This document shows, piece after piece, positions 4,605 through 63,103 of a stretch of 64,000 bases of DNA (position 1 is the first letter of the stretch; each line of letters starts with the position of its first letter). This stretch comes from a virus (Duplodnaviria; Caudoviricetes). The notes beneath the pieces were generated by a model. It worked only from the letters and a program-made list of their open reading frames with translations, was not told the DNA's origin and did no database searches. The position numbers and the translations under genes were made by a program. The stretch is from IMG/VR virus record IMGVR_UViG_3300037067_010056, positions 2,975-66,974 of that record; one strand, given 5' to 3'.

Positions 4605-4943
4605 TCACTCCCGCTCCAAGTACCTCCAACCCCAACGACCCCAAGGACGAGGATACTCCGGCCTACTCGTCCAGCTCGGATAGACCGCATAGCGCGCCCG
4701 GTCAGGTACGTCCTTCCCATCAACCGTCGTCATCACCTTGACCACCACAGCTCTCTCTTCCTGAGGAAGCTCAAAGCCCGGACCGTCTGACCACAACCAG
4801 TCAACCAAGGGCACGTACTTGTGCACCCTCCCGCCTGTCGTCTCCCACGATACCGGCGCCTCCGTTCGAGCATCCAATAAACGCCCGTCAGGAGCTAGGT
4901 GCGCATAAAGAATCGGTAGTTGATTCAATGGGTCAATCGGCAT
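4605..4943 (-). CDS. Hypothetical protein
   Basis: ATG 10 nt after GGTGTA (4954-4959, minus strand). Confidence 0.65.
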   Translation of the reverse strand: MPIDPLNQLPILYAHLAPDGRLLDARTEAPVSWETTGGRVHKYVPLVDWLWSDGPGFELPQEERAVVVKVMTTVDGKDVPDRARYAVYPSWTSRPEYPRPWGRWGWRYLERE

Positions 4944-5622: not shown

Positions 5623-6135
5623 TTGGCAAGGGATCAACCGATGAAGTCACCTGGCAAAACCCACCTAGACCAACTCCTTAAGCTGGCTTCCAAAAACGCC
5701 ATCAACTCAGAAGTCGTCACCTGGCTTCAACGAAAGATGGACGAGGAGATCGTCTTCCCGCCACGCCAAGTCACCCTGGAAGCCCTCGACAGACTCATCC
5801 AAATGACCTCGGATGAGGTCGGATACCACGGTGGAACCCATGCTGAGGAAGTCTGCGAGCTGATCTTCGGCCAAGGTGACGACTCGGGCATGCTCCTCGA
5901 CATAGTCACCCTCGCTCGAATTGCTTTAGTCCACCTCCGAGGAACAAGCTTCCTGGTCCACGAAGTCTCGAAACAAGAGGAACCCCAGAAGAGCCTCGAA
6001 GAACTCAAAGAAGAGCTAGAGAAGGTCACCCAACAACTGCAATCCGCAGATTACTCCAAGAATACAACGAGCTTGGAAGTTCGCAGAGAAGAATTGGAGA
6101 ACGAGATCTCTGGGAGAGAAGGGCTACAGACATGA
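5623..6135 (+). CDS. Hypothetical protein with C-terminal coiled coil
   Basis: Follows a class A promoter motif; start uncertain (5623 or 5641). Confidence 0.7.
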   Translation: MARDQPMKSPGKTHLDQLLKLASKNAINSEVVTWLQRKMDEEIVFPPRQVTLEALDRLIQMTSDEVGYHGGTHAEEVCELIFGQGDDSGMLLDIVTLARIALVHLRGTSFLVHEVSKQEEPQKSLEELKEELEKVTQQLQSADYSKNTTSLEVRREELENEISGREGLQT

Positions 6136-9447: not shown

Positions 9448-9897
9448 TTGGGTTCGGGATACTCGGGCCCCGAACATCTGTCTCTGCTACTGGATGAGGA
9501 GCGCCTTCCGCGTACCGTGCGAGGACGTTCCCCCTGCCTTACTGAAAGAGTGACCGTGCCTGTTGACCTGGAGGAGTTCTGGAATCAAGTGCACCCGAGC
9601 CGGCTTATACATCGGTCGGATACGCCTACTGAAGAGGTTGATGACTTCATTGCCCCAGAGCTACTCATCAAACTCATTAGTCGATTGAAGGTAATACCAG
9701 ACCAACAACAAGAGACCTTCAATAATGATGAGAAGGGCCGAACGAAGGCCAAGATCTGTGTAGTACTCTCTCAGTTGATCCTGGGAGCTAAAGAGGGTGC
9801 TGACGTTGAAGATCAGGCCTATGACCTAATGCACCTACCTACAGACTACCTGCTAAGCACTGGTGAACGGATAATCCGCCTGAAAGGCAAGAGATGA
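9448..9897 (+). CDS. Hypothetical protein
   Basis: Overlaps the next gene; start uncertain. Confidence 0.65.
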   Translation: MGSGYSGPEHLSLLLDEERLPRTVRGRSPCLTERVTVPVDLEEFWNQVHPSRLIHRSDTPTEEVDDFIAPELLIKLISRLKVIPDQQQETFNNDEKGRTKAKICVVLSQLILGAKEGADVEDQAYDLMHLPTDYLLSTGERIIRLKGKR

Positions 9898-57357: not shown

Positions 57358-57600
57358 TCAACCCTTCATGAAGTTGGCGGGGCTGTCTTTTCGGACCTTG
57401 TGTTTGATCTCGTCTCTGACCTTGCGCTCTTCAGCGGGTGGTGGCGGGTCATCAATGGGCGTTGCTGGAGCTCCACAGTTCCTGCAGACACCCCCCTTCA
57501 CTCGGAGGGGCGCATGGCAGTAGAAGCACTTGTCACGTCCCATTCCAGCCTGGAGGGCTCTGGAGGCTACTCGCTTGATGATGTCCAACCTACTGATCAT
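57358..57600 (-). CDS. Small double-Zn-ribbon protein with N-terminal RVASR motif
   Basis: KRVASRALQAG; CFYC, CRNC. Confidence 0.7.
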   Translation of the reverse strand: MISRLDIIKRVASRALQAGMGRDKCFYCHAPLRVKGGVCRNCGAPATPIDDPPPPAEERKVRDEIKHKVRKDSPANFMKG

Positions 57601-57677
57601 ACTCCACCACCCATACAGTTTGGTATAAGTTTCTTATTTTATCGCACCGCTCGACCCCTCGCGGGATAACTCGCTAT

Positions 57678-59150
57678 TCAATGAACCACTTGAGGCAGCC
57701 GCGACGTCTAAGTCGTCCAAGCTTTCTTGTACGTGCTCCAACCCCCATACACAATGAACCACTGAGCCACACCTTCCGTGGGATTTGTAGATCAAGTCGA
57801 GATTGCTCCAATCCCCCATACACAATAAACCACTGAGGTATCAACCTCCCGATTAGGGGTTGAGGGAAAATCTACATCTAGCTCCAATCCCCCATACACT
57901 CAAAGAACCACTGAGGCCAATCACCGCTATTCTGAAGCGCTCCGCCATACGTGCTCCAACCCCCATACACAATGAACCACTGAGGCCAAAAAAACCTCAT
58001 TGCGCTTTCTTGAAGCACTTATTGCTCCAATCCCCATACACTCAAAGAACCACTGAGGCGTACTTCTAGCCGCGAGGTCAGGAGAGCTACTCTCGCTCCA
58101 ATCCCCATACACAATAAACCACTGAGGCGCTGTCGCCAAAGGAAAAGTCCAAGAAGCCGCCAACCTCCAATCCCCATACACTCAATGAACCACTGAGTCT
58201 GCGAAAACTGGCAGTCCGATGGCCAGTCACTAGAGGCTCCAATCCCCATACACTCAAAGAACCACTGAGGCCCTCGCGCCAGGGCTGACATTGCATTCCG
58301 TCACATTCCTCCAATCCCCATACACAATGAACCACTGAGGCACAATCGTCACGTCGTGATGGCGACCTGATCAGAGACTCCAATCCCCATACACTCAAAG
58401 AACCACTGAGGCCGAGTACTTGGCGCGGATGACCCACGCAAGACGAGTACCTCCAACCCCCATACACTCAAAGAACCACTGAGGCCCGACATCGGCAATC
58501 CCGACAAGGCATCCGTCCTCAAGCTCCAATCCCCATACACTCAAAGAACCACTGAGGCCGTCCATCATCTCAGGAAGAAGCGCTCGGGAGCACAGTCTCC
58601 AATCCCCATACACTCAAAGAACCACTGAGGCCCAACCACAAGGGTCCCCATGCGAGACCTCCGACGAATGCTCCAATCCCCATACACTCAAAGAACCACT
58701 GAGGCCTGCTTCTTTGTCTTCCTGTTCGTAGGAATCCTCGGCTGCTCCAATCCCCATACACTCAAAGAACCACTGAGGCTTCCAGAGGTTCCGCCGAATA
58801 TAGCGAGAGCCTCATGGCTCCAATCCCCATACACTCAAAGAACCACTGAGGCCCCATCTAGGCAGTTACACCGCCGGCACTCGGTTCCTGAGCTCCAATC
58901 CCCATACACTCAATGAACCACTGAGGCTACCGATCACAATTCTACGTAGTCTATACCAGAGAATGGCTCCAATCCCCATACACTCAATGAACCACTGAGG
59001 CGCAAGCGATTGAAGATAAGCCACCAACAGGTGTTGGCTCCAATCCCCATACACTCAATGAACCACTGAGGCCGCAGTCATAAACAACCCGCCAGGTACG
59101 ATTGGACTTGAACCGCTCCAATCCCCATACACTCAATGAACCACTGAGGC
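57678..59150 (-). CRISPR. CRISPR array: 20 repeats (consensus 36 bp) plus 1 partial terminal repeat, 20 spacers of 35-42 bp
   Basis: Plus-strand consensus GCTCCAATCCCCATACACTCAA(A/T)GAACCACTGAGGC. Degeneration at the low-coordinate end places the leader above 59150 and implies minus-strand transcription. Confidence 0.97.
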
Positions 59151-59409
59151 CCTCAGTATGAGATCCTCAGTAGTTCTATACACTTACAATACTACATGCG
59201 AGAGGGTCTGCATAACCGTCTCAGCATGAGTCCTACCTGACTCCCGGTAGATCAGTGAACCGTATAGGTGATACAAACCACCTGGTTACTTCTGACTACA
59301 TGGGAATCAGATGCAAGATTTTCAGAGAACAGTCTCTCTAGTGGAAGAGAGTGCAATGCGAGCGGGTACAAGGTCTAGTATATCACCGAACCGCTCGCAA
59401 GATAAGTTA
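59151..59409 (-). promoter_or_regulatory. CRISPR leader containing anti-repeat elements
   Basis: CCTCAGT at 59151-59157 and CCTCAGTAGTTCT at 59165-59177 are inverted relative to the repeat end. Confidence 0.65.
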
Positions 59410-60147
59410 CTAGGCAGCTTTCGAATCATTCTTCCTAGAACCACCTCGTCTAGCCGACCTAAACCCATCAACCAGAATTTGGAGCTTCCGGTTCTTATCC
59501 CCAGAGATTTCGAGCTTACTCTTCAAGGACGCAATCCTCTTCTTAAGCTTCTTGATGGTCTCGTTCGCTTGGACTAGTTCTTCCTTGGCCGTGGTTCTGG
59601 AATCCATCCTTACTCTCTTTGTCATTGATCCCGGGTTGGCTTCCCCAACTTCAGCTATCAGACGGATAACCTCCAACCTCAACAAGAAGGACTTCTTGTT
59701 GGTAGTCATGTACTCAACTACCTTGTCGAAACCTTTTGTGTGGAACTTCGTCTGAAGCTTCTTTGTGACAAGAACCGCCGCGCTCAGACCAATCTTCTTC
59801 AGCACGTTCAATGGGGTTCGTGCAAGGGCTACCTTGCAATCCCCATATCGTGTTGGGTCATAGATGTCACGTTTCCGGAGGAAGGTTGCAAAACTCCACT
59901 TAGTGCTATCCGACTCATTCCGCCAAATGGAATCCTCGATCTCCAACTGGTAGAGATAGAGTACAATACGCTCCTCATTGACCTCAGCAGCTACCTTTAG
60001 GCGAGTTAGCTCCTTTAGGACTATAGCCCAACTCTCCCCCTCCACCAGCTCTGGAGCTTTGCTGTCACGGATGAGATTCTTGAGACGTACCTCTTCTAGT
60101 TGCGTTTGCATCTTTAGTGGTCTTTCTGGTAGGTGCTTGGACTTCAA
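59410..60147 (-). CDS. Basic cas-linked hypothetical protein with C-terminal coiled coil
   Basis: Lies between cas gene and leader and overlaps the cas 3' end; start 60147 or 60111. Confidence 0.8.
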   Translation of the reverse strand: MKSKHLPERPLKMQTQLEEVRLKNLIRDSKAPELVEGESWAIVLKELTRLKVAAEVNEERIVLYLYQLEIEDSIWRNESDSTKWSFATFLRKRDIYDPTRYGDCKVALARTPLNVLKKIGLSAAVLVTKKLQTKFHTKGFDKVVEYMTTNKKSFLLRLEVIRLIAEVGEANPGSMTKRVRMDSRTTAKEELVQANETIKKLKKRIASLKSKLEISGDKNRKLQILVDGFRSARRGGSRKNDSKAA

Positions 60148-62038
60148 TTGAAGGTGCTTCCGATTCGGAAGTTTCCAGATTAGTTGTTTGATTCTTACGG
60201 GCTCTGCTGTCTCGGATCACCTTCCGGAAGCTCTCACTCACCGCATCGTAGTCATACACCTTGCTCGGCGTTCCAGCTCTGAAGGTGGCCCAAGCGGTCA
60301 AGAAGTCTTTGGGGATCTCTTGCTTACACTCGTCGTTGTTGCAAATGTAGTTGCTGGATATCTTGTCAAACTCCATCTTCCCTTTCAGGCACGATGGGCA
60401 TAGAGAAGTTCCAACCTTGAGTACTCGGTAGTTGATCCCCGCCTTGGTCAAGGCCCAGATAATCTTCTCACGAAGTAGTGCACTCGGGAACCGCCTCAGG
60501 ATCTTCTCAATGCGCTTGTCCGGGTGATGCGCGAGGTGGGTGCTCCAATCATTGAGCAACACTTCAGCATAGGGCTCTCGAGTCTGAACCCAACCTTCGT
60601 GAGTCAAGGTCATCCCGCTCGCCAGTCTAGCGACTAAGGAACCTTGTTGCTCACAATAGCTCTTGGTGAACAAAGCTTCCTTCTCTGAGACCTCCGTTTT
60701 GATCCTCAAGAATCGATTTCGACCGTGACCCCGAGCTCCACGTCCTTGATGATTCAGGTGTTGAGCCATGCTACTCCGTTTGGCGTCGAAAGCCAACTTG
60801 GTCTGGAGAAGGCTGTCTTGGACCAGATCGTAGGTGAACACCTCGTTTGGATCTTTCCCTAACGCCTTGAACTGTTTCAATGACTTGGCTGTGGGCTTAT
60901 GAGGTGTCCGCCGACCTTCGAATTGAAGCCGATGAGCAAAGTAAGACTTGCTGTCGTCTACCCTACCAACACCGCGACCATTACTAGCCCACAGGCGTAG
61001 GATTGAATCCAGACCAGGGCAGACTACGAGAGTGTCCACGCCTTCTTTTGTGCTTGGTCTTGGGTAGGAGTAGGACACCTTAAGTTGGAACCGATAACGG
61101 TCATCATCCCATACCAGGCGAGCACCCCCTATCGTGTACTCACTTCCCGGCTTCAGGATCTTGTGAAGGGTTGACCATTGAGAGTTGCCTCTTGCAACAG
61201 CTTTTCCTGTCAAGTGGGGTGACCGGCCATTGACAGCTGCTCGTAGAGTAAGGATTACATCGAGATCGCGTCCGCATAGCACTAAGTCAAAGCACTCTCG
61301 AGGTAATGGGAGGCTCTTAGCCTTGAACCAAGGTGGAGATTGTTCAGCCTCTTTCTTAAGCCAGGTCCTCATCTTATCTGAGGCTTGTTTAGAAGCAAAA
61401 GCGGTCAAGCTCCCCGAAAGAGGGTTGTCACTTAACTTGTTACGAGTAGCACCCTCTTTCGCCTTCTTGCCCTTCGAGGTCTTGAGTTGGACGCGCTCTA
61501 CCGTAGCGCCGATAGCTTCAGCCAAAACTGGGTATGGCTCTCTACCTTCCTCTTTGAGGAGTGATCTGACTACAGCTCGTTGCCCTTTAGTGACCAACTG
61601 GATCACCTCGAATAGTTCTGGGTAGTGATCTACCGGCTCCTCCTTGGGCTTGGCTTCATCTTGAGTAGCTGTCTCTTCTGCTCCCTTCTTAGGCTTCTTT
61701 TTCTTGTGCTTCTTCACCCACTTCTGGTGGGCTACTTGCTGACCTTCAGCGGCTTCGCCCTCTGTTTTAGCATGCCAGCTCCAAGGTTCGAGTTCGAGTG
61801 TCACTGATCCTGGGATACGGAAACAACACTCAATAGCGTCTTGTGATCGCTCATCCATCCATTCAGAGCGAGGGCGACCAATGAGCTTGTTCCCATCCTT
61901 GACCTGCCACCCCTTAGAGGTCTTGTTGACATAAGGCTTTTCAACCCCTCGATTCCTGAGTTCCTCAACTAACCATAGTGAAGTGGCGGCTACAACGGGG
62001 TCTACTTCAGCTTTTGGCTTTGTACTAGGCATACACAT
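60065..62038 (-). CDS. cas12f: Cas12f/TnpB-like type V effector, predicted nuclease-dead
   Basis: WED motif LHKIL..EYTIGGARLV..RFQLKVSYSY; RGHGR; TSLCPSC...CNNDEC Zn finger; RuvC-I VVCPG (D to C), RuvC-II LLND (E to N), RuvC-III KD intact. Confidence 0.8.
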   Translation of the reverse strand: MCMPSTKPKAEVDPVVAATSLWLVEELRNRGVEKPYVNKTSKGWQVKDGNKLIGRPRSEWMDERSQDAIECCFRIPGSVTLELEPWSWHAKTEGEAAEGQQVAHQKWVKKHKKKKPKKGAEETATQDEAKPKEEPVDHYPELFEVIQLVTKGQRAVVRSLLKEEGREPYPVLAEAIGATVERVQLKTSKGKKAKEGATRNKLSDNPLSGSLTAFASKQASDKMRTWLKKEAEQSPPWFKAKSLPLPRECFDLVLCGRDLDVILTLRAAVNGRSPHLTGKAVARGNSQWSTLHKILKPGSEYTIGGARLVWDDDRYRFQLKVSYSYPRPSTKEGVDTLVVCPGLDSILRLWASNGRGVGRVDDSKSYFAHRLQFEGRRTPHKPTAKSLKQFKALGKDPNEVFTYDLVQDSLLQTKLAFDAKRSSMAQHLNHQGRGARGHGRNRFLRIKTEVSEKEALFTKSYCEQQGSLVARLASGMTLTHEGWVQTREPYAEVLLNDWSTHLAHHPDKRIEKILRRFPSALLREKIIWALTKAGINYRVLKVGTSLCPSCLKGKMEFDKISSNYICNNDECKQEIPKDFLTAWATFRAGTPSKVYDYDAVSESFRKVIRDSRARKNQTTNLETSESEAPSIEVQAPTRKTTKDANATRRGTSQESHP

Positions 62039-62058
62039 CTCTCATGCTGGTGTAGGGA

Positions 62059-62300
62059 GCCTTCGAGCCGTAGTCCGATGGCAATTGACTTGTTGAGAAC
62101 ATGCCATTTTGACCAACTCCAACTCCACAACCCCTACATTCAGTGGATCAAAGCAGAAAACTGGACCAGATTGTGAGAATGTATGGGGTCTGACCACTCT
62201 GGGTCAGACTTAGCTGAGTGCATGATAGCCTCGCCTTAAGGGCTATGGAGGTGCCCTAATAACACACTATCTGGTCCAGTTTTCTGCTTTGTTCCGTGAT
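62059..62300 (-). ncRNA. Candidate structured guide-scaffold/tracr-like RNA upstream of the cas gene
   Basis: 23-bp perfect IR (62149-62171/62269-62291), two internal hairpins, anti-repeat 62174-62188, degenerate repeat 62123-62143; strand inferred. Confidence 0.55.
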
Positions 62301-62306
62301 TCACAG

Positions 62307-62335
62307 ACTATCTCACGAGTTGCCTGGACTTGCAA
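62307..62335 (-). promoter_or_regulatory. Putative sigma70-type promoter TTGCAA-N17-GATAGT
   Basis: Lies between the upstream terminator and the 5' arm of the structured element. Confidence 0.35.
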
Positions 62336-62343
62336 CAGAAAAT

Positions 62344-62382
62344 GACACAGGCCTGCTAATTTATCATTAGCAGGCCTGTGTC
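62344..62382 (-). terminator. Rho-independent terminator of 62394-62660
   Basis: 17-bp perfect stem, 5-nt loop, followed by ATTTTCT on the minus strand. Confidence 0.75.
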
Positions 62383-62393
62383 GAAGGTCAGGA

Positions 62394-62660
62394 CTACCAC
62401 CGGACATCGGCAGGGAGTCGCTCATAAGCCCGTTGGCAATCATCCTCGTACTTCATCGCAGTAGAGATTTTGCCTTCTAGCCGGAGGCCGATGGCAATTG
62501 ACTTGTTGAGGGCGTAGCAGGCCAAGACTTCAACGATCTTATGAGCATCCGACCGATTCCCTACGATCTCAGAAGCCTTATTCCTAGTGGTGACATGCCA
62601 CTTGGACCAGAAGGACCGTAGTTCGTCTTGGTTCATCGAGTCGAAGTTCGGAATCTCCAT
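62394..62660 (-). CDS. Hypothetical protein; a 39-nt internal segment is copied at 62059-62097
   Basis: ATG 6 nt after class A motif. Confidence 0.75.
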   Translation of the reverse strand: MEIPNFDSMNQDELRSFWSKWHVTTRNKASEIVGNRSDAHKIVEVLACYALNKSIAIGLRLEGKISTAMKYEDDCQRAYERLPADVRW

Positions 62661-62734
62661 GCCACCTATTACGCCCCAACTCGGAGGATCTCAACCAACT
62701 TGTTACGAATGATCTTTCGGTGTAAAGTCCACGC

Positions 62735-63103
62735 ATGGGAAATCTTGAAACCGTCACCCCAGCAACTCTGGATGCCCACTTGAGCGTTCTCGTGGATTCA
62801 GAGCCTGATCTTGGGACCATCTCGCACTTGAATCACGAGGGCGACACCACGTACACCTGGGACAGGAAGAACAAGGCTGAGTGTGAAGCGGCCCAGGCCC
62901 ACTTTGAGGCTCTGAAGGCCAAGGGGTTCCTCGTATTCAAGGTCAATCGTCTTGGCGGTAAGCAGAAGAAGCCGACAACGGGTGAATTTGATCCTAAGGC
63001 TGGCAAGTACATCTACACGGCCCCCGAGGATGCCCCGGAGATGGCTACTGAGTTTGACCCTCAGGCCAATTATGTAGCAACCCCAGCGATGCAGGGCGGA
63101 TGA
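62735..63103 (+). CDS. Small protein ending in di-glycine (PAMQGG)
   Basis: GDTTYTWD..E.EAA..F..LK.KGF..EFDP.A repeated twice; GGTGTA 10 nt upstream. Confidence 0.8.
   Translation: MGNLETVTPATLDAHLSVLVDSEPDLGTISHLNHEGDTTYTWDRKNKAECEAAQAHFEALKAKGFLVFKVNRLGGKQKKPTTGEFDPKAGKYIYTAPEDAPEMATEFDPQANYVATPAMQGG

Follow-up and report, generated by a model that had tools for sequence, protein, structure and literature searches.

What is the structured element that lies directly in front of a cas gene in this phage genome, and how is it connected with the CRISPR array of the same locus? The DNA analysed here (the window) is 64 kb long and forms the last 64 kb of a single 66,974-bp virus record. Read from right to left on the minus strand, the locus comprises an 88-aa gene, a terminator hairpin, the RNA element (62098-62300), a 657-aa gene, a 245-aa gene, a leader of ~250 nt and a CRISPR array. 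A sequence-only reading of the element had proposed a tracrRNA or a natural single guide, possibly autoregulating cas expression. The tracrRNA part of this inference held up, on the strength of covariation, the scaffold and the effector, but neither a natural single guide nor an autoregulator was established. The features of the locus are as follows:

62394-62660, minus strand: 88-aa gene, the upstream neighbour of the RNA element
62344-62382, minus strand: intrinsic terminator of the 88-aa gene (17-bp stem, 5-nt loop, T-rich tail)
62307-62335, minus strand: candidate sigma70-type promoter, read from the sequence
62145-62300, minus strand: probable tracrRNA scaffold of ~156 nt (comparative fold of five copies)
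62265-62295 with 62145-62175, minus strand: P1, the long closing stem (consensus fold)
62239-62257, minus strand: P2, hairpin with an invariant loop (4 of 6 pairs covary)
62244-62252, minus strand: invariant P2 loop, candidate second contact with the repeat (complementarity to the repeat end)
62212-62235, minus strand: P3, invariant hairpin (consensus fold)
62188-62209, minus strand: P4, variable hairpin (compensatory changes)
62177-62188, minus strand: anti-repeat, single-stranded, between P4 and the 3' arm of P1
62140-62223, minus strand: 27-codon open frame that starts in the P3 loop (translation)
62123-62141, minus strand: repeat-like half unit, directly after P1
62039-62122, minus strand: remaining cas leader, a decayed second copy of the 88-aa gene (local alignment and frame translation)
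60065-62038, minus strand: effector gene, 657 aa (profile and fold matches to Cas12f)
59410-60147, minus strand: 245-aa gene, between the effector gene and the array
~57735-59150, minus strand: CRISPR array of ~20 units with 36-nt repeats (repeat scan)

The 657-aa protein itself has no Pfam match and only a weak match to the PADLOC model Cas12u3. Its family proved informative: five close homologues share 57-80% identity with it, and a profile search retrieved 145 more distant ones, many of which match Cas12f models (PADLOC Cas12f/Cas12u3) and the Cas12f zinc-ribbon domain. A profile built from 40 family members matched AsCas12f with an E value of 1e-48, and the best matches of the AlphaFold model (pLDDT 81) were AsCas12f, SpCas12f1, OsCas12f and a natural nuclease-dead Cas12f. 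The protein carries an extra N-terminal region of ~200 aa. At the catalytic positions, the first Asp of AsCas12f aligns with Cys340 here and with Arg or His in many relatives, the others being mixed but non-acidic, the column of the catalytic Glu holds Asn496, and the third catalytic Asp is present as D578 in the window protein but replaced by E, G or T in close homologues. Because the RuvC catalytic residues are absent, we infer a loss of cleavage, and the effector is very probably a Cas12f-type protein that binds DNA without cutting it. A motif rich in Gly, Arg and His (residues ~432-442) is nearly invariant over 40 aligned relatives, though the catalytic residues have been lost. Inactivated branches of Cas12f and a CRISPR-linked dCas12f cluster are known from sequence surveys (PMC10691335, PMC13472631), and Cas12f1 uses a long guide RNA of ~200 nt (PMC12255294).

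Immediately 5' of the orthologous gene, homologous elements were found in four further contigs of viral or metagenomic origin, namely L001, L003, L006 and L007 (the last being the same as L009 and related to L006). Protein identity to the window effector is 95% for L001, 71% for L003 and 32% for L006, so that the set spans 32-95%, and every genome has exactly one copy of the element, always directly 5' of the cas gene. RNAalifold analysis of the five copies, which represent four independent lineages, returned a single consensus structure of 49 pairs, 24 of them with compensatory changes; the covariation in homologous loci that the sequence-only reading had proposed as a check is thus present. 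Across the alignment, 95.9% of the cells were paired, compared with 78.8% after shuffling (a value as high was reached in 0 of 500 shuffles) and 25-40% when the pairing partners were slid by 1-3 columns, figures to be read with the size of the set in mind, five sequences from four lineages, and with a shuffle control that ignores relatedness. Given the slid controls and the double changes, a chance origin of the paired structure is very unlikely.

In the consensus fold, P1 encloses the three hairpins P2-P4, and the anti-repeat stays single-stranded before the 3' arm of P1. The closing stem contains the perfect 23-bp inverted repeat (62149-62171/62269-62291) that had been noticed at the outset, for which, by our own arithmetic, the chance of occurring within 200 nt is about one per 10^9 such stretches; the repeat in fact extends to 31 nt at 94% complementarity (62145-62175/62265-62295). 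One of the two hairpins originally drawn inside it, at 62188-62209, is real and corresponds to helix P4, which is conserved with compensatory changes. The window sequence also allows the other, at 62225-62246, but the orthologues do not retain it, and it was dropped as a conserved helix; the comparison backs P2 and P3 instead. Searches for further relatives added no members to the set: Rfam 15 covariance models run over 57500-62800 gave no relevant match at E values up to 1, scans of genome contigs for the element found none, and a looser DNA pattern retrieved only chance matches in viral contigs (L032-L034). The alignment of 40 proteins was too diverse to serve a locus search.

We then compared the element with the repeats of the array. 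The conserved part of the 36-nt repeat is its 3' 20 nt, and degenerate units at the cas-distal end of the array retain only the 3' half, as expected for the handle of a type V crRNA. The proposed anti-repeat at 62174-62188 proved real; it pairs with the repeat over 13 bp with a 2-nt bulge as first drawn, and an alternative pairing of 62177-62188 with repeat nt 17-28 gives a continuous helix of 12 bp with one U.G. The part of the repeat paired in this way is the conserved 3' half, immediately 5' of every spacer, and it is this part just 5' of the spacer that is retained on type V crRNAs. In the window the duplex of anti-repeat and repeat has an energy of -22.5 kcal/mol, which none of 1000 shuffled repeats reached; across the copies, 0-39 per 1000 shuffled repeats reached the cognate energy. 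These values refer to duplexes of the anti-repeat only, since folding of the whole RNA against the repeat was uninformative, long sequences pairing promiscuously.

The pairing follows the repeat. The four lineages carry four different repeats, and in each a single-stranded segment of the element complements nt 17-28 of its own repeat; the helix has 12 bp in the window and 11 bp in each of L003, L006 and L007, with one U.G in that of L007. The anti-repeat thus changes together with the repeat in L003, L006 and L007. Cognate duplexes have energies of -20 to -22.5 kcal/mol, compared with -8 to -13 kcal/mol for most non-cognate ones. The window anti-repeat reaches only -8 to -9 kcal/mol with the repeats of the other lineages, and the anti-repeats of L006 and L007 reach -9 to -13 kcal/mol with window-type repeats; that of L003 is less selective, at about -20 kcal/mol with several repeats. 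A second contact is suggested by P2: the core of its invariant loop complements the bases, likewise invariant, with which the repeat ends. This complementarity spans 5 bp for the window clade, and in L006 and L007, where loop and repeat are both extended, it spans 7 bp. The P2 loop probably pairs with the 3' end of the repeat as a second, pseudoknot-like contact, one for which covariation gives weak support because loop and repeat end are near-invariant, the loop being fully so within the window clade.

Other parts of the array region also deserve mention. The end of the array leader (59151-59177) contains a second anti-repeat, complementary to repeat nt 2-13, which forms a 12-bp hairpin with the first repeat (59115-59150) that is kept in L001 and L003 with one compensatory pair, and conserved hairpins lie further upstream in this leader. 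Given the leader anti-repeat, the element upstream of the effector gene may not be the only RNA that pairs with the repeat. The spacers of the five arrays had no match in the GenBank phage collection and, in the related phage genomes, none except one shared old spacer; with no protospacers found, no PAM could be derived. The first 23 nt of the oldest spacer of the window array (~57700-57735) are identical to a trailer-end spacer in the array of the related phage G004 (31805-31827), and as the other spacers differ, the arrays share ancestry and diverged later. The 245-aa gene has no Pfam match; a homologue is present in the distant L007 (9679-10410; 29% identity, E 7e-13) and the gene is also kept in L003, judged by eye. 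It looks like a dedicated accessory gene of this CRISPR system.

The strand of the RNA, which had been left open, can be assigned to the cas sense (minus). Among the consensus pairs, G.U cells number 19 when the element is read this way, compared with 5 the other way, and the U.G of the anti-repeat:repeat duplex in the window and L007 would turn into A.C on the other strand. Together with the terminator and the promoter-like site ahead of the element and the cas frame that runs through it in relatives, these observations place transcription of the RNA in the cas sense; folding energy by itself does not prefer this strand for all of the copies. In the same orientation, the conserved half of each repeat comes before its spacer. 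The terminator postulated ahead of the element was found as a 17-bp hairpin on the minus strand (62344-62382), a perfect inverted repeat that is also present in L001 and that sits between the 88-aa gene and the candidate promoter. The sigma70-like promoter fared less clearly: a layout of -35 box (62330-62335), 17-nt spacer, TG (62314-62315) and -10 box (62307-62312) is readable and is the same in L001 and L003, but with 8 of 12 matches it falls below the threshold of the consensus scan. The distant loci do not conserve it. From its position, transcription would start near 62300. A terminator scan found no terminator between the RNA element and the cas start, so the cas mRNA most likely has this RNA as its 5' leader, from which the tracrRNA would be released by processing. 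In L006, a gene of ~52 codons (5633-5791) stops three bases short of the ATG from which the frame through the RNA element runs, and a consensus -35 box lies further upstream; promoter placement thus differs between the clades.

Taken together, the locus contains a Cas12f-type gene and an array, an anti-repeat that covaries with the repeat and a conserved scaffold, and we consider it highly likely that 62145-62300 on the minus strand encodes the tracrRNA of a phage-borne, nuclease-dead CRISPR system of the Cas12f type. Cas12f proteins require a tracrRNA; one beside a Cas12f-type gene is expected, and the core finding is therefore ordinary for the field. In the mechanism that we propose, a promoter just behind the terminator of the 88-aa gene would drive the RNA as the 5' leader of the cas mRNA. 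The exposed anti-repeat would then pair with nt 17-28 of each repeat in the crRNA and the P2 loop with the last bases of the repeat, and the Cas12f-like protein would bind scaffold and crRNA together and be guided to matching DNA. Being catalytically dead, the effector would bind this target instead of cutting it.

Directly after P1 lies a sequence that complicates this picture. The degenerate repeat noticed at 62123-62143 is real, and it is the sole repeat-like unit outside the array in the 67-kb genome. Its core (62123-62141) looks like the 3' half of a CRISPR repeat; in the window and in L003, base changes particular to the lineage's own array repeat recur in it. It can pair in cis with the anti-repeat, at -19.0 kcal/mol in the window (reached by 10 of 1000 shuffles) and -20.0 kcal/mol in L003 (6 of 1000). 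The pseudoknot between the two that had been drawn from the window is possible there, but it is not conserved in the family: in L001, with its 95%-identical effector, the pairing is at -11.7 kcal/mol and not significant, and the half unit was not found in L006 or L007. L003 also has two solitary repeat units outside its array, at 4788-4824 and 9724-9760, the latter 2.7 kb away and abutting an ATG that resembles a gene start.

These properties invite the reading that the RNA and the half unit together form a natural single guide, whose guide part after 62123 steers the dead Cas12f to a fixed site, such as its own locus or a phage gene, and so controls transcription. There are precedents, in that natural fused guides of dCas12f with guide parts of 14-16 nt are known (PMC13472631) and such a fusion has been proposed to arise from a tracrRNA and a half repeat (PMC10691335). 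Similarity to the 3' half of the repeat, the shared lineage-specific changes and the cis pairing in the window and L003 all fit such a guide, and its sequence has one exact match of 14 nt elsewhere in the genome (63662-63675). That word is, however, the only such match; it overlaps the repeat-like part and a short tandem motif, is at about chance level (~0.05 such matches expected) and has no counterpart in G004 or L003. The presumed guide of the 62123-62141 unit had no conserved target in related genomes, and no PAM could be derived from the spacer searches. Its sequence, moreover, is part of a decayed copy of the neighbouring gene: the cas leader (62039-62122) is a second, internally deleted copy of the 88-aa gene, which accounts for the 39-nt direct repeat between 62059-62097 and 62472-62510 (92% identity). 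With the weak pairing in L001 and the missing unit in L006 and L007 added, we regard a natural single guide as improbable. The decayed remnant is also present in L001, where the intact upstream copy is mostly deleted.

Beside a tracrRNA, the half unit can occupy the anti-repeat in cis, which gives the leader a fold like that of a single guide. It may be a regulator of cas expression or assembly, or a leftover; it may sequester the anti-repeat, draw the protein to its own leader, or be a relic of the route described in PMC10691335.

The element also overlaps a reading frame. Most distant relatives have the RNA within the opening codons of cas. No stop interrupts the cas frame anywhere along the RNA element in L006 and L007, and in the database gene calls of seven distant relatives (P0008, P0009 and P0011-P0015) a conserved N-terminal peptide is the exact translation of the P2 loop and P3. 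The flanks of this peptide, which encode stems, vary freely in the distant relatives. In the window, L001 and L003 the same frame is interrupted by stops, and all helices and the anti-repeat are retained. In these three the N-terminal motif has a stop (62236-62238 in the window) instead of a lysine codon, and more stops follow downstream. The window's stop at 62236-62238 lies five codons ahead of the ATG of the 27-codon frame, which ends at the TGA at 62140-62142; this short frame (62140-62223) is most plausibly what is left of the N-terminal reading frame. Between L006 and L007, changes in P4 keep the pairing and alter the amino acids. Retention of the helices despite the stops, together with these pairing-preserving changes, shows that what all lineages share is a constraint acting on the RNA. 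That the frame is open in many divergent members suggests that these relatives translate through their tracrRNA. We had also considered P3 as the ribosome-binding site and start codon of the cas gene, a reading that was dropped as a general one because in P0008 that codon is Lys and the start lies further upstream.

The open frame in L006 and L007, the peptide shared by the seven relatives and a Shine-Dalgarno-like run ahead of the 27-codon frame in the window could be taken to mean that what is conserved is an N-terminal extension or a small upstream peptide, with no RNA function. However, three of the five copies have lost the frame to stops and kept every helix, the P4 changes preserve pairs at the expense of amino acids, and the anti-repeat tracks the sequence of the repeat, for which a peptide has no reason; we consider a purely protein-coding element very improbable. 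Least credible of all is a DNA element (the end of a mobile element, a recombination site or a protein-binding palindrome, with incidental complementarity to the repeat), as the arms of the 31-nt inverted repeat that would speak for it change by compensatory substitutions and G.U pairs that DNA palindromes do not tolerate, the 39-nt direct repeat flanking it at a distance is part of a gene duplication and no target-site duplication, and each genome has its one copy fixed beside cas.

The probable tracrRNA can be placed among known guide RNAs. Its nearest counterpart is the tracrRNA of the type V-F1 (former V-U3) effectors AsCas12f and SpCas12f1 (PDB 8J12, 9I8Y; PMC12255294). In both cases a long structured RNA lies beside a mini-Cas12f gene and an array, it is the spacer-proximal half of the repeat to which the anti-repeat pairs, and the effectors are homologous by profile (E 1e-48) and fold. 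The RNA described here differs in that it lies 5' of the effector gene, apparently as a co-transcribed leader, and inside the first codons in relatives; the effector is dead, has the additional ~200 aa at its N terminus and is carried by a phage, and a half repeat is fused to the RNA. The natural single guides of the dCas12f-sigmaE systems (PMC13472631, PMC12259091) share with it a dead Cas12f-type effector and a scaffold followed by a repeat-derived 3' end, and the same work likewise found guide scaffolds near arrays by covariation and mentioned a separate cluster of CRISPR-array-linked dCas12f (PMC13472631). In contrast to these systems, an array of ~20 spacers is kept here and the scaffold would act through its anti-repeat, like a tracrRNA; the locus is phage-borne and without a sigma factor gene, and no fixed target was found for the half repeat.

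Two further comparisons concern the position of the RNA and its possible feedback. The omegaRNA of ISDra2 TnpB overlaps the tnpB reading frame, and here too, in the relatives of the window element, the scaffold shares DNA with the effector coding sequence. In Streptococcus pyogenes, the long form of the Cas9 tracrRNA serves as a natural single guide that represses the cas promoter, its guide part matching that promoter beside a PAM. In both, the tracrRNA can fold onto a repeat-like segment and could exert feedback on the expression of cas, but no such promoter match was found here and the effector family differs. As for TnpB, the proteins belong to the same superfamily (for the evolutionary framing see PMC10691335) and a candidate pseudoknot-like contact lies next to the guide, but here the gene is overlapped at its 5' rather than its 3' end, a CRISPR array supplies the guide in trans and there is no transposon.

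The type of RNA is itself known; what is distinctive here is first its position as the probable leader of the cas message and then the repeat look-alike. We have entertained a bolder interpretation, which we think doubtful, in which the scaffold is a dual-use element that couples the supply of guide RNA to the dosage of the effector through feedback on its own mRNA or DNA. If this were true, the ancestral scaffold inside the first cas codons would allow the protein, bound to its own message, to block its own translation; this clade would have dropped the frame, and the fused half repeat would make a single-guide-like fold by which the effector recognises its own mRNA or DNA.

For the system itself, identification of the probable tracrRNA ties the ~20-spacer array to the 657-aa protein and provides a parts list for the guide RNA (scaffold, anti-repeat and repeat handle) with which an uncharacterised phage relative of Cas12f, one that would only bind DNA, could be reconstituted. 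With its array still in place and a half repeat joined to the tracrRNA, the locus resembles an intermediate on the proposed way from tracrRNA-dependent Cas12f to the dead effectors with single guides (PMC10691335). In the family as a whole, the same stretch of DNA carries both the guide scaffold and the 5' end of the effector gene, and one clade has given up the coding but retained the RNA; this clade, with its abandoned frame, is a clear natural case of RNA constraint outweighing protein constraint.
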